From an uncultured Gammaproteobacteria bacterium (GTDB lineage: Bacteria > Patescibacteriota > Microgenomatia > UBA8517): a stretch of 64,000 bases of DNA. Each line of letters starts with the position of its first letter. Within the stretch, counting starts at the first letter, position 1. Where the stretch lies: positions 45,055-109,054 of the forward strand of contig CAZOVJ010000002.1 of NCBI GenBank assembly GCA_964583685.1. The letters run 5' to 3'. A model generated the notes under the pieces. It was not told where the DNA came from, searched no databases, and saw only the letters and a list, made by a program, of their open reading frames with translations. Position numbers and translations under genes: made by a program. This document shows positions 4,952-58,576 of the stretch, piece by piece.

Positions 4952-6199
4952 TTATTGATGCGCAATAAGGACAGAAGGAATGTTTCTGCCATTAATCCCA
5001 TTCCACTTAGGCTTAGCACCTGTGAAGTCAATATAGTGTAAATTGCCAAAAACACTGAAACCATTATTTTTATCTTTAACACAAAGTTTGCTGCTTTGCC
5101 CTGCATCACAAACCGCAGCCTGAACAAAATCAAATTTTTGAGTAAGTAGGTCATGAAGCTCATAGATGTTTAAACCTGATTGGTTTTCAATAAAAGGAAA
5201 AGAATCTGCCAGGAAAAAGATAACCTTACTTTTCGTGAAAAATATAATACTCCACGCTTTAAAAAAACCTTTCTCTAGAGGCTTGATCTTGCCGTCATAA
5301 CTAGGAATAACTTCTCTAGTTATTATCTTTCTAAGGGATTTAGCTTTTTTAGGCAAAGTAAAGCTTAATGTAACAGCATTATCGTGTCTTCTTACTGTGT
5401 AATTATCAATTACCACCTTATGGATCAAATCTCCAACCGTTATATCATTTTGCAATCTTTTATCTGTTTCGATTACATAGAGATAGTCAAATAAGCTCAA
5501 AGGCTTGGTGCTTTTCTTCGCAACAGAAACTTGTCCTTTTTTATTAAGATCAACACCTAAGAGTATTCTATCCTTAAAGCAATTCAACATCGTTGTCTTT
5601 CTAATCGCAATTCTTGCCTTGCGAATACTATTTTCGTATTTAAATCGAATATCCGAAACCCCATAAATAATGGCATCACAACCATTGTTTGGCCCTAAAT
5701 TCTTATAATTTTTGGCGCCAATCCATTTCAGTTCTATATTCCCTATAGCCATTTCGCCTTCTGCTTTCAAAAACCTAATTGAAAGTTTGCCCTGGCGTTC
5801 AATTAAACTAACTCTGCTATTGCTGGGGAACTGCAACACTTTTCCTTGGCTAACATACAAGTTAAGGGCTTGAACTTTTGGAACCCTACCCTTATCCGTC
5901 AGATATAAATTACAGGTATTTATACTGCCTAATAAATTGGGAGAAATCTCCTTATAAAATTTTTCAGTGAATTTCAATAATGAATTTGGCATAAAATCAT
6001 TTATAAGAGAAAATTTATATGTACTTTTTGGTATTTCGAGCCAATATAAATTAACAAATCTGTCACTAGTGGGCCAGTAAGTCTCCTGATTTAAAAAAGC
6101 ACATTTACCCATCCTTGTTCTTTTTCTATTAATTGGGCTAATTCCTTTTTGTTCGAGTAGTTTGTCTTCGTTATTAGCAAGCATCGGTTGTACATTCAA
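4952..6199 (-). CDS. Hypothetical protein (415 aa)
   Basis: Long ORF with no recognisable motif. Confidence 0.45.
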   Translation of the reverse strand: MNVQPMLANNEDKLLEQKGISPINRKRTRMGKCAFLNQETYWPTSDRFVNLYWLEIPKSTYKFSLINDFMPNSLLKFTEKFYKEISPNLLGSINTCNLYLTDKGRVPKVQALNLYVSQGKVLQFPSNSRVSLIERQGKLSIRFLKAEGEMAIGNIELKWIGAKNYKNLGPNNGCDAIIYGVSDIRFKYENSIRKARIAIRKTTMLNCFKDRILLGVDLNKKGQVSVAKKSTKPLSLFDYLYVIETDKRLQNDITVGDLIHKVVIDNYTVRRHDNAVTLSFTLPKKAKSLRKIITREVIPSYDGKIKPLEKGFFKAWSIIFFTKSKVIFFLADSFPFIENQSGLNIYELHDLLTQKFDFVQAAVCDAGQSSKLCVKDKNNGFSVFGNLHYIDFTGAKPKWNGINGRNIPSVLIAHQ

Positions 6200-6257: not shown

Positions 6258-6581
6258 TTATTTTAACATATTACCTTTTCTGATAATTACATGCTTGAAC
6301 CATTTTTCTTGAAATCTGGTTTGTTTTTCAATTTCTTCATCTGATAATTTGATTCCTTTTGAAACAACAATTAGTTTGTCGCTATTGTCATTGATTCTGT
6401 GAATCACAGCAATACAAATCCCTTTGGCTTTTTTAAGAGGTTTACCGACTCCCAAATAATAAGCATCTAATTCTTCGCCATCTGGAGAATATGTATTGGG
6501 AATAAGCCCATAATTTGCTTCATAGAGAAAACAATGTTTGGGATGTTTACTCCCCAAAGGTCGGTCAATAATAACCTCCAA
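6258..6581 (-). CDS. Short inorganic-pyrophosphatase-like protein (possibly truncated)
   Basis: IPNTYSPDGEELDAYYLG resembles the family I PPase DGDPLDVLV region, but the protein is only 107 aa. Confidence 0.4.
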   Translation of the reverse strand: MEVIIDRPLGSKHPKHCFLYEANYGLIPNTYSPDGEELDAYYLGVGKPLKKAKGICIAVIHRINDNSDKLIVVSKGIKLSDEEIEKQTRFQEKWFKHVIIRKGNMLK

Positions 6582-6586
6582 AAATA

Positions 6587-6778
6587 TTACTCTGGTCGTA
6601 TGTTGTTGGTTGACCTATCCAGCTCGTTATCTGGAATTTCCAAATTTGATATAAGTTTTCTTGCTTCTTTGCGAGTTTTGTAAGACCCACCCAGATTCCT
6701 CCTTGTTTTCTCACTTAAAACATAATAACCATTTTTTCTTTTAATTATCATTAAAAAACCATAGATACAGTATTTCAA
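6587..6778 (-). CDS. Small hypothetical protein (63 aa)
   Basis: ORF only. Confidence 0.25.
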   Translation of the reverse strand: MKYCIYGFLMIIKRKNGYYVLSEKTRRNLGGSYKTRKEARKLISNLEIPDNELDRSTNNIRPE

Positions 6779-6812
6779 TTTAGCCTGAAAAATGGTAAAA
6801 TTTAAGTGTTAT

Positions 6813-6883
6813 TGCGGGGTGGTGTAATGGTAGCACACTGCTCTCTGGAAGCAGGAATCGGGGTTCGAATCCCTGCCCCGCAG
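6813..6883 (+). tRNA. tRNA-Gln (anticodon CUG); CCA not encoded
   Basis: Hand-folded cloverleaf: acceptor TGCGGGG/CCCCGCA with a U1-A72 pair, U8, D-stem GTGT/GCAC, anticodon stem CTGCT/AGCAG around loop CTCTGGA, T-loop TTCGAAT. A promoter-like TGGTAAAAT element lies upstream. Confidence 0.8.
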
Positions 6884-6989
6884 CACAGATTCAAGCGGCA
6901 CTATGTGGTCTCAAAAAAAGTCCTTATTTTTATTCTTGAAAAAAATTGATAATAAGCTATAATTCCAGGAAACGAATCAAAAGGCAGAA

Positions 6990-7466
6990 ATGAGAATAAA
7001 AGAATTATTTACTGGGCCTATAAAAACAGAGCACCCGCAAGGTGGCGAATTAAGGATGAATGCGGAGACGCTGGATCAAATGAAGGAGCAAATTGTATCA
7101 TTGTTTGAAGAAAAATTTGGCAGATATCGTCTGGCTCTGATTTTAAGGTATTGGGGTAAGAAACCAATTCGACATGCTGTCGAGGAAGATAGGCCTAGAA
7201 CTTTGCCTTTTGATATTATCGCTGATGTTAGACATAACATTGATACCTCAAAACAAGCACTTGCCCAAGCCCCCTTAACAAAAGGTGAGAAAAGGACAAC
7301 TTTTATTGCTCTTTTTAGCCGATTAGACGAACTGCTCCATGATCACCTGATCGAACAGGGTGAATCAGATGATATCTTCTATGATCTAAGTGAAGTTCAC
7401 GCAGTAATCGAGGATTGTTTGCAAGATTACCAACAAAGACTACATCTCCTTCCAGAGGTTGAGTAA
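6990..7466 (+). CDS. Hypothetical protein (158 aa), higher GC than neighbours
   Basis: ORF; compositionally closer to the 7.9-11.6 kb block. Confidence 0.45.
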   Translation: MRIKELFTGPIKTEHPQGGELRMNAETLDQMKEQIVSLFEEKFGRYRLALILRYWGKKPIRHAVEEDRPRTLPFDIIADVRHNIDTSKQALAQAPLTKGEKRTTFIALFSRLDELLHDHLIEQGESDDIFYDLSEVHAVIEDCLQDYQQRLHLLPEVE

Positions 7467-7512
7467 AATCAGGAAACAACTTCTCTAGCTTGAGATAAAA
7501 CATTAGTCATAA

Positions 7513-7650
7513 GGTTATGGGTTCGGAAGGTTCTAGCCCGGTATGCTCAGCCGAATTGGATACCTTTTTCATACTGTCTCACTTGTACTTTTATGGTAAA
7601 TTAGGAGTTATGGAGTTGTAAGGATAAAACAGGTCTAGGCCAGCTTACTC
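7513..7650 (+). repeat. Island repeat family, first copy: R-module (7513-7552), L-module (7565-7590), degenerate R-module (7626-7650)
   Basis: ggttatgggttcggaaggttctagcccggtatgctcagcc, then tttttcatactgtctcacttg, then caggtctaggccagcttactc. Confidence 0.7.
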
Positions 7651-7881
7651 TTTAATTACTTCGCAGTTATAGTGAATGAAGCTTAGTCTCATCAAACTCA
7701 TTATTTGAATGTTAATTCCAGAATTGGAAGCCTCGGGAGGGAAAATTTAAAGTAATATAAGCTTTTGTGCTTACATTGTCCTTCATTTTCTAAATCCCTC
7801 CCGAGGAGACCCGTGTAAAAGATTATTGATTCGAGTTGCTTATAACTCTTATCAACTTTTAACCTCCTACCCGAGTCTCCC

Positions 7882-9864
7882 CTACTGTTTCTCTTCAACA
7901 ACCTTACCGTCCTTTATTACAATCACCCTGTTAGCCATCTTTGCAAACTGCTCGTCGTGAGTGATAACCACCAAGGCTTTACCTTGCTGTCTGAGATCTT
8001 GAATCAACTTAGCCACCTTCAACATAGCAGCTGAGTCAAGACCAATTGTGGGTTCATCCAACACCAAAGTTGTAACAGCTGTGTTGCAGGACGCTATGGC
8101 CAACATTCTTACATCTGAAGGGTGCAGGTCCAGCGGACAAGTCAAAGGATTCAAACCTGTCCATTCAAGACCCCCCCTAACAAAGGCATCTGTATCCGAT
8201 TCAGACCACCCCAAGATCTTTGGACCAAAGCTAAGTTCTTCTTCAACAATCATGGCAGTTATCTGCAAAGCCGCATGTTGGAAAACGTAGCCCACCTGAC
8301 CCACCGTTTCTACCGTACCTTTAGCTGGTTTTATGGCACCAGCCAGGGTAAGCATGGCAGTTGTTTTGCCTGAGCCGTTGGGTCCCATAATGGCAACAAC
8401 CTCTCCCTCTTTCAAGGTAAGATCAATGCCTTTAAGGATTTCGTTTCCCTCGAGGGCTACATATACACCGTTCATTCGGGCAACAACATCGCCCAAGTCA
8501 CTTTTGGGATACTTCTCCGGCTGGTCTACAAGGTTGCAACGAGATAGCCACTCGTCGCTATTGAAGAAATTGTTTGGACTAAGGTCTGCCGTAAGTTTCC
8601 CCTCCTCTAGAACATAGACTCTATCAGTAAATCTAGCCAACTCTTGCCAAAATGGGTCGGCTATCACTACAGTGCAAGCTTGTTTGGACCGCAAGATACT
8701 GAGCGCTTCCATAAAGTCAACTCTACCCTGAGGATCAAGCTCCTGCATGGGCGAGTCCAGTAAAAGTGTCTTTGCCCCAGAGACCAAAGCTCCAGCCAAC
8801 ACCAGTCGTACTTGTTCACCGCCGGATAGCTTCGTTGTCTCACGATCCCACAACTCACCAATCCCCATAGTATCTAGAGCTTCTTTGGCTTCTTTCTCAT
8901 CTTTAGCTAAAAAAGAAATCTCTTGTCCCACTGTAAGACCGTATATTGAAGCAAAAGGATCTGGTGCAACATAGCGGGCAAAGCTGCATAAGGCAGACAA
9001 CGGTATCTCGTGGGCAAGCTTACCCGAAACCAATACCCCGCCTTTAAGCCCTCCCATAATCCAGGGAACGACCCCACCCATCACTCTTAAAAGAGTCGTC
9101 TTTCCCGCCGCATTCTTACCAGCGAGATAGACAAATTCGCCTGACCTAATGGTTAGACTTATGTCTTCAAGAACATCCGGAAGTCCAGGAGAATAACGAG
9201 CAAAGACATTCTTAAGTTTAATGTCTCCTTCCATCTGGCTTTCTTCTGTGTGGTGAGATTGAAAAGCAAGTGTTGCTTGCTGGGAATTTACTATAATCCG
9301 AGGGATGATGGCTACTGCCAAGGGCACAAGATTTTTAATATTGGCCCTAATTGAATCCCATCGTAAACCTCGGATAATTAGTGATTGAGTAAGGGCAACA
9401 AATTCCCGTCTGAGTATTTGTATGCCCCGCAAAATCCCTAAAGCCCATGTTCTTATGGGTTTAATCCAAGCAATCCCCCGATACATCTCTGGCGCCGGTG
9501 TTGAAAACAACCAGGCGAACGAGATCAACATCACCCCAGCAAGTCTTGAGCCGGTAACCAAACCGCGTTCTATTCCCACTGAATTGATTGTAAAGACAAA
9601 CCAGTGAATCCCACCGTACTCAGGGGGTGAAAGTATGGCGTTGTAAAGAAACACCATCCCGCCTGAGACTGGCGCAGCCAGAGCCAATTTCCAGTTCCTG
9701 TTGCTATTAGCAAGAAACAAAAGCAACCCTACTACTAGAAGGGAAATGGCTCCTGTTACGTTATTTATAAAGATAAACAACAGGCTCACTGTGAACACTA
9801 TGGCGAATCTCAATTCTGGTGGGAGAACACCTAAACCGAAACCTCTCTTTCTATTTGAGAACAT
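7882..9864 (-). CDS. ECF transporter, fused T component (EcfT/CbiQ-like) plus duplicated ATPase domains (EcfA-EcfA')
   Basis: N-terminal multi-TM region followed by two Walker A motifs (GKNAAGKTT and GPNGSGKTT) with LSGG signatures. GC is about 50 % or higher. Confidence 0.75.
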   Translation of the reverse strand: MFSNRKRGFGLGVLPPELRFAIVFTVSLLFIFINNVTGAISLLVVGLLLFLANSNRNWKLALAAPVSGGMVFLYNAILSPPEYGGIHWFVFTINSVGIERGLVTGSRLAGVMLISFAWLFSTPAPEMYRGIAWIKPIRTWALGILRGIQILRREFVALTQSLIIRGLRWDSIRANIKNLVPLAVAIIPRIIVNSQQATLAFQSHHTEESQMEGDIKLKNVFARYSPGLPDVLEDISLTIRSGEFVYLAGKNAAGKTTLLRVMGGVVPWIMGGLKGGVLVSGKLAHEIPLSALCSFARYVAPDPFASIYGLTVGQEISFLAKDEKEAKEALDTMGIGELWDRETTKLSGGEQVRLVLAGALVSGAKTLLLDSPMQELDPQGRVDFMEALSILRSKQACTVVIADPFWQELARFTDRVYVLEEGKLTADLSPNNFFNSDEWLSRCNLVDQPEKYPKSDLGDVVARMNGVYVALEGNEILKGIDLTLKEGEVVAIMGPNGSGKTTAMLTLAGAIKPAKGTVETVGQVGYVFQHAALQITAMIVEEELSFGPKILGWSESDTDAFVRGGLEWTGLNPLTCPLDLHPSDVRMLAIASCNTAVTTLVLDEPTIGLDSAAMLKVAKLIQDLRQQGKALVVITHDEQFAKMANRVIVIKDGKVVEEKQ

Positions 9865-9936
9865 TTTCCTCTCCCTTCCCTAAGGGAAATAGAGGAGACG
9901 GGTAGTGGTACTATCCGTCTCCCAGATCCGCATATC

Positions 9937-10698
9937 TCACTTGGCTATTCCGGCATCTCGTAATCGTTGGGTGTACATTGGTAGTAGGAATAGACCCAAG
10001 ATGGCAGAGACACTGTCTCCCATAAACCACCCTATTCCTGGATCAACCAGTGCCGCTGCAAACGGTTTCCCACCAACGGTTGCACCGATCGCGCCAATCA
10101 ATGCGCTTACCAGGCATATCAAGACGACGATAAGCAGAGCAGGTAGGAAATGTCGCGGGTTAAGCTCTAACCCCCCAAGCAGCAAACGTGCCCCAACTAC
10201 AAGCACTGCCAAGGGAATTAGAAATCCCCAGGGCATTACTAAGTTGAGGGATATGTTCAACAAACCTGCTGCTAAAACCAGGAGGGTCAAAATCATGACC
10301 CGAACGGCTCCGGTCAACACGTCAGATGGTTTCTTTGCCCCCAAAGTTGGATCGATTTTGAAGGCGGTGAACAGGAGAGCGGGCAACGCTGCGTTTGCGA
10401 GGCCGCCGGCAATTGGGTTCATGATAATATCCACGATACCCCAACCGCCGTACGCCAAAATTCCTGCCGCATAGGCTCCCAACCCCGCGGCTAGACAACC
10501 ATACCAAGGCCCCAGCCAGATGCCGGCAACAAGCTGCAAGGCCGCCGGAAGCCAGATAAAACTGGCTCCTTTGACAGTTGGCGATGATCCTACTGTCATC
10601 ATCACCCAGCCGATGGCGGCAATAGCCACGGCCATGCCGATAGTAAACATAAGTCGCAGTGCCGGGTCGCGCCTAACGACATATTCCGAAGTAGTCAT
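9937..10698 (-). CDS. ECF transporter substrate-specific (S) component, Gly/Ala-rich 6-TM protein (substrate unknown; folate-family is a guess from context)
   Basis: Hydrophobic small-residue-rich integral membrane protein directly upstream of the EcfT/A/A' gene; high GC. Confidence 0.5.
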   Translation of the reverse strand: MTTSEYVVRRDPALRLMFTIGMAVAIAAIGWVMMTVGSSPTVKGASFIWLPAALQLVAGIWLGPWYGCLAAGLGAYAAGILAYGGWGIVDIIMNPIAGGLANAALPALLFTAFKIDPTLGAKKPSDVLTGAVRVMILTLLVLAAGLLNISLNLVMPWGFLIPLAVLVVGARLLLGGLELNPRHFLPALLIVVLICLVSALIGAIGATVGGKPFAAALVDPGIGWFMGDSVSAILGLFLLPMYTQRLRDAGIAK

Positions 10699-10869
10699 TG
10701 GATCTTCTCCTTATTTGAACTTAGATCTATCGGACGGTTGGACACAAGTTTGCATAGAGCCTCCTTATTTGAAACAGCAGAGGAAGAAAACAGCCACATA
10801 GAAGTGACTATCTTTTCCCTCCACTGCTTCCAGTTCTGAAATCACTATTTAAATTTAATTGTTAATGTG

Positions 10870-11610
10870 CTAATTACCTTTTTGCATATTTCTTAATTCA
10901 GGAAGCAAAGAAATACTTTCAAATAGACGTGGATCCAGACGTTCCCAGTAAATCCCCTTCGGCTTTTGCTGGGTTTCTGAAACACGAATGAGGCGGCTAG
11001 GGGTAATAATAATGTCACAGAGAGTATCAAAAGGTTCTACTTGAAGTTCGTTCTCTGTCACTTGACAATCATGAACAAAAGCCACCACGGGTGTTTCCTC
11101 GCCAACCATACCTATTTCCCTCATCATTGCCCACTCAATATCGAAAAAGCCATGGCCCTTGCCATACCTCACTCCATTGATGCTTATAACAGATGCGCCA
11201 GTTATCAAAAAGTCAATTTCCCCTAACTTCTGAATGTCGGCAAGGGTTAATCTCTCCCCGAAACGCTCCATGCCATCCAATGAAGAAGCGTAGTTTTCTT
11301 GCCCTTGAGGCACCATTCCTCTCTCAAGCAAAATCATTCCACGACGAATACCATAAGTCGGCACAATCGCTTGTTTTGAATCTCGAATACTCTGGCTTCG
11401 TATCCCTTCTAAACAATTATCGGGTGTTATCAGTATCCGCTTTGATTCTCTATAAAGATCGAGATCCAATAAATGAGTCAGTGCCTGGTCACTCCCTTCA
11501 AAATCCGGGATAAATTCGGCAAAATTAAGATGATACCTACTGTCTGGCCTGGCAACCAGCGATAGCTGCTCCCAGACCCGCTCTCTTATCGTATCCCTTT
11601 CAGTTCTCAT
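10870..11610 (-). CDS. 5-formyltetrahydrofolate cyclo-ligase family protein
   Basis: GVRYGKGHGFFD matches the MTHFS G-G-G-YD motif. Confidence 0.6.
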   Translation of the reverse strand: MRTERDTIRERVWEQLSLVARPDSRYHLNFAEFIPDFEGSDQALTHLLDLDLYRESKRILITPDNCLEGIRSQSIRDSKQAIVPTYGIRRGMILLERGMVPQGQENYASSLDGMERFGERLTLADIQKLGEIDFLITGASVISINGVRYGKGHGFFDIEWAMMREIGMVGEETPVVAFVHDCQVTENELQVEPFDTLCDIIITPSRLIRVSETQQKPKGIYWERLDPRLFESISLLPELRNMQKGN

Positions 11611-11644
11611 TTTTAATCTCTTTCAGATATTCTTTATAAAACAA

Positions 11645-11680
11645 AAATCCTGCTTAAAGCAGGACAAACTAGTGTCTTTA
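11645..11680 (-). terminator. Rho-independent terminator downstream of the PRTase gene
   Basis: Perfect hairpin tcctgctt-taa-agcagga, followed on the minus strand by a T-run. Confidence 0.55.
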
Positions 11681-11789
11681 TAAAACAAAAAAAATGTTTC
11701 TTGTTGACTGCCATTCTATTAACAAAACTTTCCTGCGGCAAACAGGTTATTATTCTGTAATTTCAGACTATAAGGTTTTAATTTTTATG

Positions 11790-12320
11790 TCAAGAGCTGA
11801 AAACAGGAAGGGTATCTAAGTAGACCAAGTCTTGAAGGTCTTCATCCGTCCGGTCTCCTTGCTTAAAAACTGCCATATACATCACCGCTTTTGCCCCAAT
11901 GCCTTTCATCAATCCCTTTATCACCCGCATTGTGTATCCGGAAAAAATAACGTCATCAACTATAACTACTTTCTTGTTTTTGAGAAGTCTCGCATCCCTT
12001 CCATCCAGAACAAGCCCCTGTCTTCCTTTTGACTTTACTGGAGAAACCATATATCCATGGATCTTCTTTCTACAAACAACGTATTTAGGTTTACCGAGAA
12101 TCCTGGAGAGTTCATGAAGCAGAGGAACAACCTTAACTTCAGGCCCAACCAAATAGTCAAACTCTACACCCTTTAACTTCCTGAGTAACTTCTGGGCTAT
12201 AATTTCAACAAGTTCTTCATCCCCAAGTAAGTTAAAAGAGGCAACTTTTATTTTGGGACCCAGTGCCACAACTGGCAGCTTTCTCGCAACTTTCCCAACC
12301 CTTAAGGTATAAAAATCCAT
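11790..12320 (-). CDS. Type I phosphoribosyltransferase (purine PRTase-like)
   Basis: PRPP-binding motif VVIVDDVIFSGYTM. Confidence 0.7.
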   Translation of the reverse strand: MDFYTLRVGKVARKLPVVALGPKIKVASFNLLGDEELVEIIAQKLLRKLKGVEFDYLVGPEVKVVPLLHELSRILGKPKYVVCRKKIHGYMVSPVKSKGRQGLVLDGRDARLLKNKKVVIVDDVIFSGYTMRVIKGLMKGIGAKAVMYMAVFKQGDRTDEDLQDLVYLDTLPVFSS

Positions 12321-12559
12321 ATTATTACACTTTAACCAGATATCAGGGTTTTGTAAACGCTACGCAATGTTTTACTGGATCAATGAGTGAGTGAAAAGGG
12401 TGTATATTACGAGGTAAACATTAACACAGACAATATTTTCCAAAATTTTCTAACTACAAGATTATAAACAACACCGGTCTCCTAACTTTTTTACCAGATA
12501 CCCCTCGTCCTTATTAGGCATGCTTTGTTTATCGCTCGCAAACTTGATAAAATTCGATT

Positions 12560-13036
12560 ATGAGAAGAACAGGAGTCAGAGCAGTAGCGGTATTAACAAA
12601 AGGTGACAGAATACTTTTAATTCATAGAACTCGAGATAGTAAGGAATTTTGGGTTTTGCCAGGAGGCGGAGTAGAAAAGGATGAGAAAATTGAAGAAGCA
12701 GTTAGCCGTGAAGTTGAAGAAGAGACAAGCATCAAGTGTAAAATTGTTAAATTGCTTTATACACACGTTTATTCTGACCTTGGTCACAAACAATATTATT
12801 ACCTGTGTAAATACGTTTCAGGAACCCCCAACCTGGGGAAATTCAATGAATTCTATACAATGAAGGAAGAAAATCAGACTTACGCACCAGTTTGGGTAAA
12901 CATTGGAAACTTGCCAAAAATATTACTTTATCCTCTGGAAATTCGGGACTGGATTATTCAAGATTACAGAACAAACTTCGAGCACCCGCCTAAATCCGCG
13001 ACGTTAAAATCCACAAATCTCCGTCAAGAAACATGA
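12560..13036 (+). CDS. NUDIX hydrolase (paralog A)
   Basis: Nudix box GGGVEKDEKIEEAVSREVEEETSI; about 70 % identical to the 26461-26937 product. Confidence 0.8.
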   Translation: MRRTGVRAVAVLTKGDRILLIHRTRDSKEFWVLPGGGVEKDEKIEEAVSREVEEETSIKCKIVKLLYTHVYSDLGHKQYYYLCKYVSGTPNLGKFNEFYTMKEENQTYAPVWVNIGNLPKILLYPLEIRDWIIQDYRTNFEHPPKSATLKSTNLRQET

Positions 13037-21055: not shown

Positions 21056-21976
21056 ATGGTTGAAAGAAAGCGTTTCGGTACGATAGAATCTTCCCCAAAA
21101 AGCAGAGGTTCAATCGATCTCGAACTTGGTGAAAGAATTAAGATCCCGTTTACTGGGGCAGAAATCATTTATGCAACTACTATCTCCGGAGATAAGGTGG
21201 TAGTTAAAAAACCACTAAACAACGATCGGGCTAGACATGAATGGGAAGGTCTTAATACAGTAGAATCGACAGGTATTTCTATCCCAAAACCTGTTGCGCT
21301 AATAAGCTATTCAGAGGACCAACTGGCTATTGTATCTAGTTATGTTGAAGGCGATAAATTGTATGATAAACCAAACCCTGATGTAAAAGCAGAAGTTGGA
21401 AGGCAAATTAAAAAAATGCACCAAAGTGCACAGATTGTCGGTGAAGATTGGCTATCTAGTGGTCGAAGCTCATTTCTTTACTATGATAGATATATTTATA
21501 GGTGGTCTAGGGGAAATATCGAAGAGCTGAAAGCAGACGGTAGGACTGCTTCAATATTAGGAGAACTTACCGATGCTGCGGATCAATTCTGTACGCACTC
21601 AGAACCAACATTCAACCACAACGATTTACATGATGGGCAAGTTATCGTAGATGGAAAAGGAAAACCAACAATCATAGATTTTGGAAATTGGACAGAAGAA
21701 ACTTGGATGAACGATATCGGTTATCACTTGTTTCACCTTGTCAGAACTGACAGAGTAGGTGCTGATGACTTTACAAACTTTTTAAACGGATACATGGAAG
21801 GCAAAAAAATGACTGATAAAGAAAAATCAAATTTGGCTTTTTACTTGCTTTTTATATCATCAAGAGCACTAAATTATTTTTACAGAAGACATAGCTCATA
21901 CTTGCCTGTTGCACAAGAGACTCACGAAAAAGTGTTGGCTCATCTTGAAAATGAATCAATCTGGAAAGATTATTAG
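21056..21976 (+). CDS. APH/ChoK-family small-molecule kinase (aminoglycoside-phosphotransferase-like)
   Basis: Catalytic loop HNDLHDGQVIVD and IDFGNW, the Brenner and DFG-like motifs of the APH family. Confidence 0.65.
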   Translation: MVERKRFGTIESSPKSRGSIDLELGERIKIPFTGAEIIYATTISGDKVVVKKPLNNDRARHEWEGLNTVESTGISIPKPVALISYSEDQLAIVSSYVEGDKLYDKPNPDVKAEVGRQIKKMHQSAQIVGEDWLSSGRSSFLYYDRYIYRWSRGNIEELKADGRTASILGELTDAADQFCTHSEPTFNHNDLHDGQVIVDGKGKPTIIDFGNWTEETWMNDIGYHLFHLVRTDRVGADDFTNFLNGYMEGKKMTDKEKSNLAFYLLFISSRALNYFYRRHSSYLPVAQETHEKVLAHLENESIWKDY

Positions 21977-22620
21977 CCCTTTTTTTCTAGAAGCTTAAAA
22001 TGAGAGTAATCGTTGATGTAATTTACTTTCCAGGATTTCCTTTGACTGCTGTAAATCAGGAGAGAGATACCTGTGTAGTTTATTGTTAGTGTTCTAATAA
22101 CTCTTGCCATCATCTCATCCGAATAATTATTCCCTAATATAACCATACTTATAAAACATCTGATAAACACGTCATGCGATACGACCAAAATTCGTTTTCC
22201 TTTATATTTTTTCCTTAAGAAACTTGAGAGTTTATCCGCTCTGCCTAGGACTTCTCTCACTGATTCCTCCTTATTTTTAAACTTCCAATCAAGATTTCTG
22301 TAGTTTGCGTAATATTCTTTAACATATTCTCTTGAAATCTTACTGTTTCTATCTGCTCCATACATTTGAGGTAATTGCATTCTTTCGTGTATGTAATCTA
22401 GAGTCTCTGTTTTAATTTTCAGATTACCAGAGAGAATTTCTGTAGTTTTTCTTGACCTTTCCCATTTACTTGAAAAGATTTTGTCTAATCGGGAGAATCT
22501 GGATCTTTGACTTAAAACCTCTGCTTGTTTTTCACCAAACTTGCCCAGTTTGGAGTCAGGAGTCTGCCACTGGTTTCTGGGGGTTTCGCTACTTGCGTGT
22601 CTAACTAAGAACAATAACAT
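21973..22620 (-). CDS. Histidine phosphatase superfamily protein (PGAM-like), last gene of the RiPP operon
   Basis: LFLVRHASSE (RHG-type) and ILVVSHDVFIR (SHG-type) motifs. Confidence 0.55.
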   Translation of the reverse strand: MLLFLVRHASSETPRNQWQTPDSKLGKFGEKQAEVLSQRSRFSRLDKIFSSKWERSRKTTEILSGNLKIKTETLDYIHERMQLPQMYGADRNSKISREYVKEYYANYRNLDWKFKNKEESVREVLGRADKLSSFLRKKYKGKRILVVSHDVFIRCFISMVILGNNYSDEMMARVIRTLTINYTGISLLIYSSQRKSWKVNYINDYSHFKLLEKKG

Positions 22621-22627
22621 CTTATCC

Positions 22628-23398
22628 TTATTGTACTGTTCCTAGTGCTATAACTCCAATGACGCTTTCATCAATCTTGTCAAAATCGAGAAGTCTGTTT
22701 AAGCCATCGTCAATAAAACCACCTATTGAACAAGCGCCCAACCCCAGCTCGGCAGCTAGTAAGCTAACATTTTGTGCATAGTGACCGTACTCTGTATAAA
22801 TATGCCTCAAACCTCTATCACCATACTTCTCCTCAGTTCTGTCAAATATCGACGATATTACTAGTAAAACAGAAGATTTTCGAATCCAAGGTTGGTTAAA
22901 CTGTTTCATTGTTTCTTTGAAAAAGGGTTTATCATATATCTTTTCCAAAGAATGGCTTTTAACATGATAGTGGTATATTGCTGGCAGCAAATCCTCAACT
23001 TTGAATACAAAAGGATAAATTTCTAATGGGTATCTTGCTCCAGCAGAAGGGTAAAATCGTTTGTCTTTTGTCTTTTTAAACGATAACCTCTTTAACCCGC
23101 ATGAGTAAAACATTAGATTGGAAAAAACAGCGGATTTAATGTTCTTTTTTGTAAATTCTCTTATTGACTCTCTTTTTGTTAATGCATTACTCAAGCTCCA
23201 TTTCGGTTTGGTGGGTGTAGGTAGTAAAACCTGCTCCATCCTGGGATAAGCTTTATAATAAACTTTCTTCCAATGCTCCGGCCAAGTGGAATAAGGTGTT
23301 GTCTTGTATTTACTGAAATCGTCAATCTTTATATTATTATTGAACTCCCTTGATTTAGAGATTTTCAGCGTTTTAATTATTTTTCCTAACTTGTTCAT
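22628..23398 (-). CDS. SagB-type FMN-dependent dehydrogenase (azoline oxidase; nitroreductase fold)
   Basis: RESIREF and PSAGARYPLEIY match the SagB-type dehydrogenase signature. Confidence 0.8.
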   Translation of the reverse strand: MNKLGKIIKTLKISKSREFNNNIKIDDFSKYKTTPYSTWPEHWKKVYYKAYPRMEQVLLPTPTKPKWSLSNALTKRESIREFTKKNIKSAVFSNLMFYSCGLKRLSFKKTKDKRFYPSAGARYPLEIYPFVFKVEDLLPAIYHYHVKSHSLEKIYDKPFFKETMKQFNQPWIRKSSVLLVISSIFDRTEEKYGDRGLRHIYTEYGHYAQNVSLLAAELGLGACSIGGFIDDGLNRLLDFDKIDESVIGVIALGTVQ

Positions 23399-23399
23399 G

Positions 23400-24710
23400 T
23401 TATAAAAATGGGTGAGGATAAGTGTTTAATTTTCCGGTATTTTTGTAGCCCAAACTACTCGGAACGTTGTGTAAACGCTCACCTCCCCGTAGTGGGTATT
23501 TTTCATTAAGATACACAGGTTGCATTCTCGGTATCACAACCTTCACTACTTTAAAAGGAATATCCATAAAGTATTTTGAGGTAATATCTTTGTAATATAT
23601 TTTATAACCCCTATCTTCTAGAGATTTTCTTAATATACGCAGCTGGTTTCGTGCAGAAAGATCCTTGTTTGCGGACTCTATTTTTACAAGATCTAAGTTG
23701 TTAATAAAAAAGTCTAACTTTGAGATCGATTTAGATGGGTACCAAAAAAGCCCTCGATTTTTAATTGTAGAATTTTTAATCAACTCTGTTTTTGAAATAT
23801 CTGATGGATTTTGTATATATGATTCGCGTATCCATGTTCTTGTATGAAATGCTTCATTGATCGAACCGATAATTGCACTTTCTATATCTAAGTGAGATTT
23901 TAAACCTACAGAAACAGCTTTACTAAATCCGGTTTCATCGACCACCACAGATGCAACAGCTGGAATGGGCAAATCTGTTCTTATATCTAAAGAAAATATT
24001 TTCAATCTATATCTCTGAGATATTTCTAATAGTTTCTTAACTTTTTCATTATTAGAAGACAAAAGATCATATCTTTTTGGTTTTAGTTTATTCAGATAAT
24101 AAATCATGAATGCATCTCTCTCAATAACTTCATAAATTCCACCCAATATTGCAGAATCTAGTTTAAAATGACCGGCAGCCCCAGTACTAATTGATGGATA
24201 GATGGCTGGCTCTTTTTTGACGGGACGGTAGGATAGGTAAATTACCTGGCAAGGGACGAGACAGCTCTCGTTAGTGTTCAAAGATTTCATTTCTGTCCAC
24301 CTAAACAATGAATTGTCGTCAATTCGAAAATTCTTATATTCATTTTGATGAAGTTGTTTGTCTGAAAAAAATATGAACTTCTCTGGATTAATGGCATTTT
24401 TATTGATTTTCGAATAGCTACCTACATAACTAACCTCTTTATTAAAAAAGGCGAAATTATCATATCTCTCTATCGCTTCAGCTAAAGCTTTTAGTACTGC
24501 CTCATATTGGGAGAAAAATGACACTCCTGAAGCCTTTGAGTGAAAGTGTGCTCCATCTTGCTTTAAATGTTTATCATTGATTGACGCTGAATAATACCAG
24601 AACTTAGGCTCATCATAATGTTGTCGAACTCTTTCAAAAGATTCGACTAATTTAATTTCTTGCAAGATGGGGCTGAGGTTTTTGATCAAACTGATAAAAT
24701 CTTCATTCAT
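23400..24710 (-). CDS. YcaO-domain cyclodehydratase
   Basis: GVSFFSQYEAVLKALAEAIERY fits the canonical YcaO ATP-binding motif. Confidence 0.85.
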   Translation of the reverse strand: MNEDFISLIKNLSPILQEIKLVESFERVRQHYDEPKFWYYSASINDKHLKQDGAHFHSKASGVSFFSQYEAVLKALAEAIERYDNFAFFNKEVSYVGSYSKINKNAINPEKFIFFSDKQLHQNEYKNFRIDDNSLFRWTEMKSLNTNESCLVPCQVIYLSYRPVKKEPAIYPSISTGAAGHFKLDSAILGGIYEVIERDAFMIYYLNKLKPKRYDLLSSNNEKVKKLLEISQRYRLKIFSLDIRTDLPIPAVASVVVDETGFSKAVSVGLKSHLDIESAIIGSINEAFHTRTWIRESYIQNPSDISKTELIKNSTIKNRGLFWYPSKSISKLDFFINNLDLVKIESANKDLSARNQLRILRKSLEDRGYKIYYKDITSKYFMDIPFKVVKVVIPRMQPVYLNEKYPLRGGERLHNVPSSLGYKNTGKLNTYPHPFL

Positions 24711-58160: not shown

Positions 58161-58190
58161 AAAAGCTCGCGGAAAAGCGAGCTTTTTTCT
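58161..58190. terminator. Hairpin plus U-run terminator just 3' of rnpB (functional on the minus strand)
   Basis: aagctcgc-ggaaaa-gcgagctt, with T/A runs on both sides. Confidence 0.6.
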
Positions 58191-58576
58191 GGCTCTGGAG
58201 GATAGTAAGCCAGATTCTGTTTTAGTCCCGCCTGACGGCAGGTAGGTAATCATCTGTCTATGCCCTCACCTTGGGACGTTCCCCTCGCTGAGCGAGGAGA
58301 GTCGGGAAGGCATCCTAATGACGTCCCGGTCGGAGGTTGCAGCAGGGAGGATTGCCTCTTTTCACCCTCTTCCCTAATACCGTTAGGTATTAGGATGAGT
58401 CGTAGTCTCTGTGGCTCTAACTAGCGGTTACCCGTGTCCGATGTAAATCGGACCACCCTGCCTTCTGCTGTCTGGACTTTCCTCCCCGCCTAATTTTTGC
58501 CTTTCGCCTTTAAGTACTATTCGTACACGGCTCTAGGCGCAAATTTTGGCGGAGCGATTACCCCTCCTCCAGAGTA
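58191..58576 (-). ncRNA. rnpB: RNase P RNA (bacterial type A)
   Basis: The reverse complement contains GGGGAGGAAAGTCCAGAC (P4 5' strand), CAGGGTGG, GGTAACCGC, AGGGTGAAAAG and ACAGAATCTGGCTTAC (P4 3' strand). P1 pairs CTCTGGAGG with CCTCCAGAG. The region is GC-rich and the ORF track covers it only with short overlapping ORFs on both strands. Confidence 0.8.

Follow-up and report, generated by a model that had tools for sequence, protein, structure and literature searches.

What might the group of minus-strand genes between positions 11610 and 7882 of this DNA import, and how did it reach its host? The window is the whole analysed stretch of 64,000 nt (contig CAZOVJ010000002.1, positions 45,055 to 109,054). 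The three genes encode a 5-formyltetrahydrofolate cyclo-ligase-like (FCL-like) protein, a membrane protein resembling the substrate-binding (S) component of an energy-coupling factor (ECF) transporter, and a single chain (TAA) in which the transmembrane T component is fused to two ATPases, A and A'. We consider it probable, with some reserve, that they form a self-contained mobile ECF-type importer cassette for a purine- or GTP-derived heterocycle, together with an ATP-dependent enzyme that traps or converts the imported compound. A phosphoribosyltransferase (PRTase) gene lies next to the cassette. The genes and the hairpins between them are as follows:

7882..9864 (-): TAA gene, 660 aa; one chain with an EcfT/CbiQ-like domain followed by two ATPase domains.
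9937..10698 (-): S-like gene, encoding a 253-aa membrane protein.
10755..10847 (-): hairpin in the FCL-S spacer, 93 nt, near-perfect.
10870..11610 (-): FCL-like gene, 246 aa; PF01812 (5-FTHF_cyc-lig).
11665-11647 (-): terminator-like hairpin with a T-run, between the PRTase and FCL genes.
11790..12320 (-): PRTase gene, 176 aa; Pribosyltran, PRK07322 APRT subfamily.

These four minus-strand genes had been described in an earlier note on the same DNA, and the open reading frame (ORF) calls, with Pfam and NCBIfam, agreed with its family assignments. The genes it observed were thus present; the size and extent of the GC-rich block and the position of the PRTase gene had to be revised. The PRTase was said to follow the operon, but it is upstream on the transcribed strand, and is set apart by the hairpin at 11665-11647. 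As for interpretation, the gene identities, the host group and a horizontal origin were upheld, whereas a recent transfer, a PRTase inside the block and a folate substrate were not.

The TAA protein matched PF02361 (CbiQ) at aa 13-203 (48 bits, profile positions 7-205 of 216) and PF00005 twice. Its best NCBIfam matches were the ECF ATPase models TIGR04521 and TIGR04520 (216 and 202 bits), under the equivalog cut-offs of 330 and 315. The chain consists of a T domain and two nucleotide-binding domains (NBD1 and NBD2):

9250..9864 (-): T domain, aa 1-205; Arg motifs of the coupling helices: LRG (about aa 145-147) and IRG (about aa 165-167).
8530..9222 (-): NBD1, aa 215-445; Walker A (GKNAAGKTT) and signature (LSGGEQ) intact.
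7885..8457 (-): NBD2, aa 470-660; Walker A, Q-loop, LDEP and THD canonical.

Both Arg motifs were kept in 14 of 14 homologues from Chloroflexota, the candidate phyla radiation (CPR) and 'Bacillati bacterium ANGP1'. NBD1 lacks the Q-loop Gln (APDP), the catalytic Glu of Walker B (LLLDSP) and the H-loop His (ADP); across the family, its signature reads LSGGQ/E, its Walker B LLLD-S/A-P and its H-loop ADP or TDY. In NBD2 the signature is degenerate, with LHPSD (LHP-x-x across the family) in place of LSGGQ. According to the motif alignment, this pattern of losses is identical in 19 of 19 family sequences, including the distant Bacteroidota branch. Since NBDs dimerize head to tail and the losses are complementary, all of the defects would fall in one composite site, leaving the other consensus; the TAA protein is thus predicted to have one consensus and one degenerate composite ATP site. 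The fusion of T, A and A' was found in all 18 TAA genes examined, from four phyla. It is therefore family-wide, and not an uncommon trait of this locus as once supposed. In the FCL-linked relatives whose T is a separate protein and in which just A and A' are fused, NBD1 is canonical and only the NBD2 signature is eroded. A literature search on degenerate ATP sites in ECF transporters turned up no description.

Two known groups are useful for comparison. Group I ECF transporters with a duplicated ATPase (YkoEDC, CbrTUV and QrtTUVW), reportedly treated by Rodionov et al. in 2009, share with the cassette a small membrane S protein, a CbiQ/EcfT protein with two Arg motifs, two CbiO/EcfA-type NBDs, and the absence of an extracytoplasmic binding protein. 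No gene for such a substrate-binding protein (SBP) was found in or adjoining the cassette, in the window or at the homologous loci. Unlike group I, the cassette has T fused to A-A', one degenerate site, a seven-helix S protein for which Pfam has no model, and an obligatory partner gene of the FCL-like (or Qng1 or RibA-like) type. The heterodimeric ATP-binding cassette (ABC) exporters TM287/288, TmrAB and CFTR also have one degenerate ATP site. In these exporters, as in the TAA protein, the catalytic base and the H-loop His are missing from one NBD and the signature from the other, so that both defects meet in a single composite site. They are type IV exporters, whereas the motor of the cassette is an ECF-type (type III importer) module.

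The S-like protein had no Pfam match even at an E-value of 10, no NCBIfam family and no sequence match in the PDB. Its AlphaFold2 (AF2) model, built from a 40-sequence alignment, is a seven-helix bundle (pLDDT 85.4, pTM 0.84). The best PDB fold matches, all weak, are ECF S components: BioY (4dve, probability 1.0), PanT (4rfs_S) and ThiT (4muu). Folate-type S components were not indicated, with no match to PF12822 and with the FolT structures 9kym_D and 4huq_S ranking 15th and 31st (probability 0.25 and 0.21). The window S protein and its close homologues matched neither PF06177 nor PF12822 in the search for QueT/QrtT, and a distant relative (L033, 189 aa) touched QueT at an E-value of 0.043. 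No S protein matched the YkoE, ThiW, ThiT or HmpT models. Helix 1 has an A-x-x-x-A pattern (AVAIA), as read from the sequence. Several Trp, Tyr, Asp, Asn and Gln residues are invariant, as would be expected for a heterocycle-binding pocket. The family is small: 228 relatives were found in a collection of 5.8 billion proteins and, at 50% identity, no more than 31 clusters in a set of 1.84 billion representatives. The S gene adjoins the TAA gene at all loci examined. Because of this invariable neighbourhood, an S component is the best reading of the protein; the modelled fold alone is only suggestive.

An S-like domain was also observed at the N-terminus of multi-pass membrane proteins of 422-803 aa (P0259, P0261, P0263, P0264, P0266, P0268 and P0270), in which Pfam detected no informative extra domain. 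The S fold thus appears to be reused outside ECF cassettes. A relation to MASE1 was considered and rejected, as it came from one UniRef name and a sub-threshold match of a distant relative (E-value 2.5e-4), and the window protein fails to match. No plasmid matches of the S protein were found.

The FCL-like protein passed the Pfam threshold for PF01812 (43.8 bits; cut-off 27), but remained under both 5-FCL equivalogs, TIGR02727 (29 bits against 84.9) and NF007661 (30 against 343). Its AF2 model has a pLDDT of 90.9. Foldseek retrieved 1ydm, 2jcb, 1sou and 3hy6 (E-values 1e-10 to 1e-7, TM by target 0.62-0.72); the top folds, 1ydm and 2jcb (E-value 1e-10), are only 16-19% identical to it. Sequence and profile searches of the PDB with the S and FCL proteins gave nothing useful besides one local match to 1ydm. 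The loop G150-K-G-H-G-F-F-D157 and the preceding R148 are invariant in the family, and the loop lines up with GFGGGYYDR in 1ydm; another residue stands where the canonical YDR motif ends in Arg. The protein is thus predicted to have a 5-FCL fold without being an orthodox 5-FCL. It shares with MTHFS/YgfA and with the thiamin-associated COG0212 paralogue the fold, the G-x-G-x-G-aromatic-aromatic-D loop and the preceding Arg. From MTHFS/YgfA it differs in being about 50 residues longer and in having importer genes, not folate genes, as its companions.

About 1,760 FCL homologues were collected, many of them archaeal. On one contig of Bathyarchaeota and on two others, a homologue of about 50% identity directly follows a small membrane protein, a CbiQ protein and a fused A-A' protein. 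That membrane protein has an N-terminal motif that can be aligned with the S family (hhalign E-value 0.001, 31% over 91 columns). A plasmid of Roseinatronobacter sp. S2 (L041; NZ_CP121115, 3723-12075) has two FCL-like genes. One, 48% identical, is the first gene of an operon that also encodes an NMT1/THI5-type binding protein, an ATPase and a permease. The other adjoins an ABC importer of the BMP/PnrA type, and MurR/RpiR and LysR regulators lie between the two. A paralogue with the 5-FCL fold therefore appears to be a recurrent companion of three importer classes: ECF, ABC with an NMT1-type SBP, and ABC with a BMP-type SBP. Such recurrent pairing suggests that the imported molecule is converted or metabolically trapped. 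A literature search on 5-FCL with ECF transporters returned nothing specific.

Passages of PMC3223725, PMC4120688 and PMC5041015, citing Pribat 2011, link a 5-FCL paralogue to genes of thiamin metabolism or transport. For a related COG0212 paralogue, 5-FCL activity is reported as negative in a passage of PMC3223725. The length of the FCL-like proteins (about 245 aa), their archaeal and haloarchaeal homologues (47-53% identical) and their clustering with transporters are consistent with that group. The window protein is likely to be orthologous to the COG0212 paralogue of Pribat 2011 (At1g76730 and the Haloferax protein).

Clues to the substrate come from sister cassettes, in which an S protein of 45-56% identity is followed by a fused TAA protein and has another partner instead of FCL. 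In three Bacteroidota-type loci (L021-L023), the S protein (45-51% identical) and TAA protein are followed by Q_salvage/Qng1. In four others (L024, L025, L035 and L037), the partner is a RibA-like GTP cyclohydrolase II, and two of these (L024 and L025) also have a COG3236 N-glycosidase (TIGR02464, 132 bits; cut-off 73.7). The four RibA-like proteins were aligned with E. coli RibA; in all of them the three Zn cysteines are kept, and Tyr105 is replaced by Met, Met, Ser or Leu. A RibA homologue with a Tyr-to-Met replacement reportedly stops at the formamidopyrimidine nucleotide, as Spoonamore and Bandarian are said to have found in 2008. That nucleotide is an intermediate described in PMC9478397. 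Quaiyum et al. (2024) listed, as candidate queuosine-precursor transporters untested in that work, ABC transporters that cluster with Qng1 or are fused to it, and tabulated an ECF-like cluster in which two membrane proteins without annotation lie beside Qng1 (PMC11130926). The Bacteroidota S-TAA members, directly upstream of Qng1, which served that study as its signature gene, resemble QueT/QrtT and these candidates in position; the cassette differs from QueT/QrtT in lacking any QueT or ECF_trnsprt Pfam match, and has an FCL-like gene in the place of Qng1. In CPR genomes, the neighbours include the APRT-like PRTase and, in L014, also a GMP synthase subunit. Taken together, the partner genes seem to share a theme of 2-amino-4-oxopyrimidine heterocycles derived from GTP or purines, namely pterins, 7-deazaguanines and early riboflavin intermediates.

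Some sister loci have further genes of note. Extra conserved multi-pass membrane proteins without a family match were observed in L021-L023 and L035 (192-212 aa) and in L025 and L037 (136-139 aa). A protein with SIR2_2 and STALD (SLOG) domains, a typical anti-phage architecture, is encoded directly upstream of the S-TAA-RibA-like cassette at L024:4527-6014, and a NADAR/COG3236 gene lies upstream of it.

The host is a Woesebacteria-like Patescibacterium of the CPR, in keeping with the earlier assignment. The nearest named relatives of its aspartyl-tRNA synthetase (AspRS) are from Patescibacteria and Candidatus Woesebacteria. The window also contains such housekeeping genes as glutamyl-tRNA synthetase (GluRS), RelA/SpoT, RecJ, the CCA-adding enzyme, MiaA and RNase P RNA.

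The base composition of the cassette differs from that of its surroundings. The cassette (7882-11610) has 47.1% GC and the remaining window 38.3%; 528 windows of the same size elsewhere have a mean of 38.3% (standard deviation 1.6, maximum 41.2). The stretch 10441-10500 reaches 63.3%, as the earlier figure of above 60% implied. The 50-60% given for the whole block was too high: the span 6990-12320 has 44.5%, and only 27% of the 200-nt windows of the cassette are at or above 50%. GC and GC at third codon positions (GC3) were 0.465 and 0.446 for TAA, 0.535 and about 0.543 for S, 0.437 and 0.401 for FCL, and 0.416 and 0.401 for PRTase; the background ORFs have 0.380 and 0.342. The PRTase gene (41.6% GC, z 1.2) and the ORF at 6990-7466 (40% GC, GC3 0.33) resemble the host in composition, and without them the block is smaller than first described.

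Codon usage was examined through the GC expected for each gene from its own amino-acid composition and the synonymous codon usage of the window. The S gene was the sole strong outlier, with a GC3 of about 0.544 against an expected 0.377 (z 3.5) and a codon-fit z of -4.6. It has the highest GC3 and the worst codon fit in the window, and the largest GC3 excess among 67 ORFs. The corrected GC3 z-scores of TAA (1.8), FCL (0.9) and PRTase (1.2) are within about 2 standard deviations. The codon-usage check proposed earlier therefore set apart the S gene only. The compositional contrast is real, yet weaker and narrower than first stated.

A scan with one genome per GTDB species identified 22 loci: 13 in Anaerolineae and other Chloroflexota, 2 in 'Bacillati bacterium ANGP1', 2 in Patescibacteria (L014, KR11; L016, Shapirobacteria) and 5 of Bacteroidota type. 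The diversity of the family is centred on Anaerolineae. The order FCL-S-TAA was found in every Chloroflexota, ANGP1 and Patescibacteria locus holding the full cassette (13 Anaerolineae/Chloroflexota, 2 ANGP1 and 3-4 Patescibacteria loci), with two tandem FCL paralogues at some of them. In the Patescibacteria, the GC3 of the three cassette genes is above that of the flanks: 0.47, 0.59 and 0.47 against 0.26-0.37 in L014, and 0.51, 0.64 and 0.43 against 0.25-0.36 in L016. The metagenomic L039 has 0.40 for S and 0.35 for TAA against about 0.25. The opposite sign was seen in L012 (Anaerolineaceae; GC3 0.46 against 0.66-0.75), L034 and L023, where the cassette is GC-poorer than its flanks. In L008, its composition equals that of the host.

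A neighbour-joining (NJ) tree was reconstructed from the concatenated FCL, S and TAA proteins (1161 columns, 100 bootstraps), with the window, L014 and L016 as the CPR copies. These three copies were monophyletic in 0 of 100 bootstraps. L014 clustered with the Anaerolineales loci L007, L008 and L013 in 100 of 100, the window joined them in 92 of 100, and L016 was placed elsewhere. A low-GC bias in amino acids would tend to draw the CPR copies towards one another, so their interleaving is unlikely to have arisen from composition. The closest cassettes from Anaerolineales share only 64-65% identity with the window copy in the concatenated alignment. Metagenomic Patescibacteria sequences (L039/L040) have PRTase, FCL, S and TAA genes in this order, with 73, 70, 81 and 74% identity and entirely different flanks. 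Since this relative, at 70-81% identity, already holds all four genes, the acquisition must be old. Compositional islands of either sign, an Anaerolineae-centred family and non-monophyletic CPR copies favour the horizontal origin proposed earlier; the distance to Anaerolineales and the four genes of L039 contradict a recent one. The cassette thus appears to have been acquired horizontally, long ago, from a gene pool of Chloroflexota (Anaerolineae) type. Tests for a tRNA-linked island showed no integrase ORF and no att-like repeat of the tRNA-Gln end, and a literature search for a host link between Patescibacteria and Anaerolineae gave nothing specific.

The PRTase matched NF005592 (173 bits; cut-off 143) and PF00156 (58.8 bits), and aligned over its full length with solved APRT-like proteins; its PDB relatives are 5zgo (E-value 2e-34), 6fsp and 7f06. 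The last of these uses a different sugar phosphate. L014, L016 and L039/L040 have a PRTase gene upstream of the cassette, and none was found within about 5 kb of it in 14 non-CPR loci. The gene thus seems to be conserved upstream of the cassette only in Patescibacteria. It is predicted to be a separate transcription unit; a 17-nt perfect direct repeat, TCTTTATAAAACAAAAA, at 11631-11647 and 11675-11691, brackets the terminator hairpin.

The FCL-S spacer is strongly folded (minimum free energy -49.4 kcal/mol, z -3.35) and contains two copies of TTCAAATAAGGAG. Its hairpin is not conserved in the relatives and is specific to the window genome; it is possibly an attenuator or a stabiliser. A miRNA-type Rfam match to it on both strands is spurious. 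A conserved spacer motif was considered and dropped, as part of the shared AAGGAGGTG belongs to the FCL reading frame at some loci and the frame of a possible leader peptide is not conserved. In the riboswitch searches, the only Rfam matches were tRNAs, RNase P RNA and one flavin mononucleotide (FMN) riboswitch. The latter precedes a separate ABC importer operon with an NMT1-type SBP (L012:601-3421), 1.7 kb from the cassette (L012:5112-8974). A GntR/UTRA (HutC-type) gene ends 12-13 nt before tandem FCL genes at L018:3549-4307, L020:3515-4288 and L011:143-469, and may encode a regulator dedicated to the cassette, in which case its ligand would disclose the substrate. Among 60 flanking ORFs of Anaerolineae loci, methionyl-tRNA synthetase (MetRS; local synteny) and the GntR/UTRA regulator recur, and neither informs on the ligand.

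These features may be combined as follows. A substrate would be bound by the seven-helix S-like protein, and its import, a direction that we infer, would be energised by the single-chain T-A-A' module. The catalytic composite site would be formed by the Walker motifs of NBD2 and the signature of NBD1; the other site would at most bind ATP. The FCL-like protein, predicted to be cytosolic and keeping the 5-FCL phosphate-binding loop, might use ATP to convert or trap the imported compound. The cassette would have entered the Woesebacteria-like lineage from the Anaerolineae-type pool before the lineages of the window and L039 split, and its codon usage would still be GC-rich, most of all in the S gene. 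The Patescibacteria copies remain beside an apparently native APRT-like PRTase, which may phosphoribosylate the product. The substrate might be a base or nucleoside resembling a pterin, a 7-deazaguanine or a riboflavin precursor.

Several observations weigh against this reading of a horizontally acquired heterocycle importer. The fold matches of the S protein are weak (E-values 0.06-0.7, TM 0.41-0.58), and seven helices are predicted where S components have six. The partner enzymes are heterogeneous, so that a single guanine-derived theme could be coincidence. In passages of PMC3223725 and PMC4120688, the published link of the COG0212 paralogue is to thiamin and not to purines. No riboswitch was found upstream of any cassette by Rfam (the window and about 28 loci at the gathering threshold, with an E-value search of 6500-12700), and no ligand-specific regulator was seen upstream of the cassettes. 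The trees are NJ only, and the CPR loci besides the window come from bins of metagenome-assembled genomes. About half of the GC excess of the cassette reflects amino-acid composition. The gradient of GC3 excess, S > TAA > FCL, is seen again in each CPR copy, and because of this recurrence gene-specific constraint probably adds to incomplete amelioration. The cassette might on these grounds be native to Patescibacteria, its GC excess being that of an Ala/Gly/Leu-rich membrane protein under local selection. With host codons, the amino acids alone predict 47% GC for S and 43% for TAA, and the deviations of TAA, FCL and PRTase are small. The codon fit of the S gene, the predominance of Chloroflexota over Patescibacteria (13 against 2 of the 22 species-representative loci), the bootstraps in which the CPR copies never form a clade, and the islands of opposite sign in L012 and L023 all speak for transfer, and a native origin is considered very improbable.

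The substrate may be viewed in other ways. Folate salvage, in which 5-formyltetrahydrofolate (folinic acid) would be imported and converted by a true 5-FCL to 5,10-methenyltetrahydrofolate, is metabolically sensible on general grounds for an importer of a stable folate form paired with a 5-FCL. The Pfam match, the 5-FCL fold and the intact phosphate loop agree with it, and a pterin fits the theme of the sister cassettes. The two failed equivalogs, the low identity to solved 5-FCLs, the extra 50 residues, the replaced YDR Arg and the close homologues common in archaea do not, and the S protein has no FolT/ECF_trnsprt signal, with FolT folds ranking low (probability 0.2-0.25). As the sisters carry Qng1 or RibA-like partners, the folate substrate suggested earlier is unsupported, and this reading is rather unlikely. 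An import of a thiamin pyrimidine or breakdown product, such as hydroxymethylpyrimidine (HMP) or N-formyl-aminopyrimidine, for thiamin salvage, with the FCL-like protein as the thiamin-associated COG0212 paralogue, is likewise doubtful. ThiY belongs to the NMT1/THI5 family, the SBP type of the plasmid operon headed by the 48% identical FCL homologue, and the S, CbiQ and A-A' genes beside other FCL homologues resemble YkoEDC. The link ascribed to Pribat 2011 in passages of PMC3223725, PMC4120688 and PMC5041015 also favours thiamin. Against it, neither a thiamin pyrophosphate (TPP) riboswitch nor a thiamin gene was found near any of about 30 loci, the S protein matches none of the four thiamin-type models searched, the sisters have no thiamin genes as partners, and the sole NMT1-type ABC importer near a cassette is under an FMN, not a TPP, riboswitch. 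Import of queuine, queuosine or preQ, as may occur in the Qng1-linked Bacteroidota relatives, would fit the S proteins followed by Qng1 in L021-L023 and the published, there untested, candidates beside Qng1 (PMC11130926). An S identity of 45-50% cannot fix specificity, and a 5-FCL-fold enzyme dependent on ATP has no place in known queuosine salvage. No Qng1, tgt or que gene was seen beside any FCL-type cassette or among the scanned window ORFs (about 30 of roughly 70), no preQ1 riboswitch was found, and this substrate is quite improbable for the FCL-type cassette.

A more specific function may also be imagined. Instead of acting on folate, the FCL-like protein might be an ATP-dependent ring-closing ligase for N-formyl-aminopyrimidines, which would, for example, turn a formamidopyrimidine (FAPy) base or nucleoside back into a purine and so salvage ring-opened purines. 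Such a ring closure parallels the conversion of 5-formyl- to 5,10-methenyltetrahydrofolate. It also fits the sister cassettes, since their RibA-like proteins lack the deformylation Tyr and some are accompanied by COG3236 N-glycosidases. This idea is a long shot. If true, it would give auxotrophs a new route, together with the single-active-site ECF importer and, in Patescibacteria, the adjacent PRTase, and would provide a function for the orphan COG0212-type paralogue.

The surroundings of the cassette and other parts of the window contain the following features:

4952-6199 (-): 415-aa ORF with a TTG start, cassette flank; host-like composition.
6813..6884 (+): tRNA-Gln(CTG), about 1 kb past the 3' end of the cassette; a neighbour only.
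6990-7466 (+): 158-aa ORF, cassette flank; host-like composition.
21973-24710 (-): group of a YcaO cyclodehydratase (23400-24710), a nitroreductase/McbC-like protein (22628-23398) and a 215-aa ORF.
58190-58573 (-): RNase P RNA class A, a divergent copy; 113.9 bits (gathering score 100).

Neither flanking ORF had a Pfam or NCBIfam match. The YcaO group may be a cluster for an azoline-type ribosomally synthesised and post-translationally modified peptide (RiPP) in a Patescibacteria genome.

In summary, horizontal transfer, or an ECF transporter in a CPR genome, is ordinary in itself. The cassette seems to represent an uncharacterised mobile family of ECF-type importers whose S components form a new family, whose T-A-A' fusion is conserved and whose motor apparently has a single catalytic site. 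The family-wide degenerate site, the new S family and the pairing of a 5-FCL paralogue with importers are additions to the earlier note. The TAA protein would be a handy single-chain system in which to ask if both ATP sites are required in ECF transporters. The pairing of the 5-FCL paralogue with three importer classes makes the function of this orphan family, open since 2011, testable. The cassettes also add candidates for the missing transporters of queuosine precursors and other micronutrients. They further suggest an old and repeated gene flow between Chloroflexota and Patescibacteria, which may have brought a salvage function to an auxotroph.

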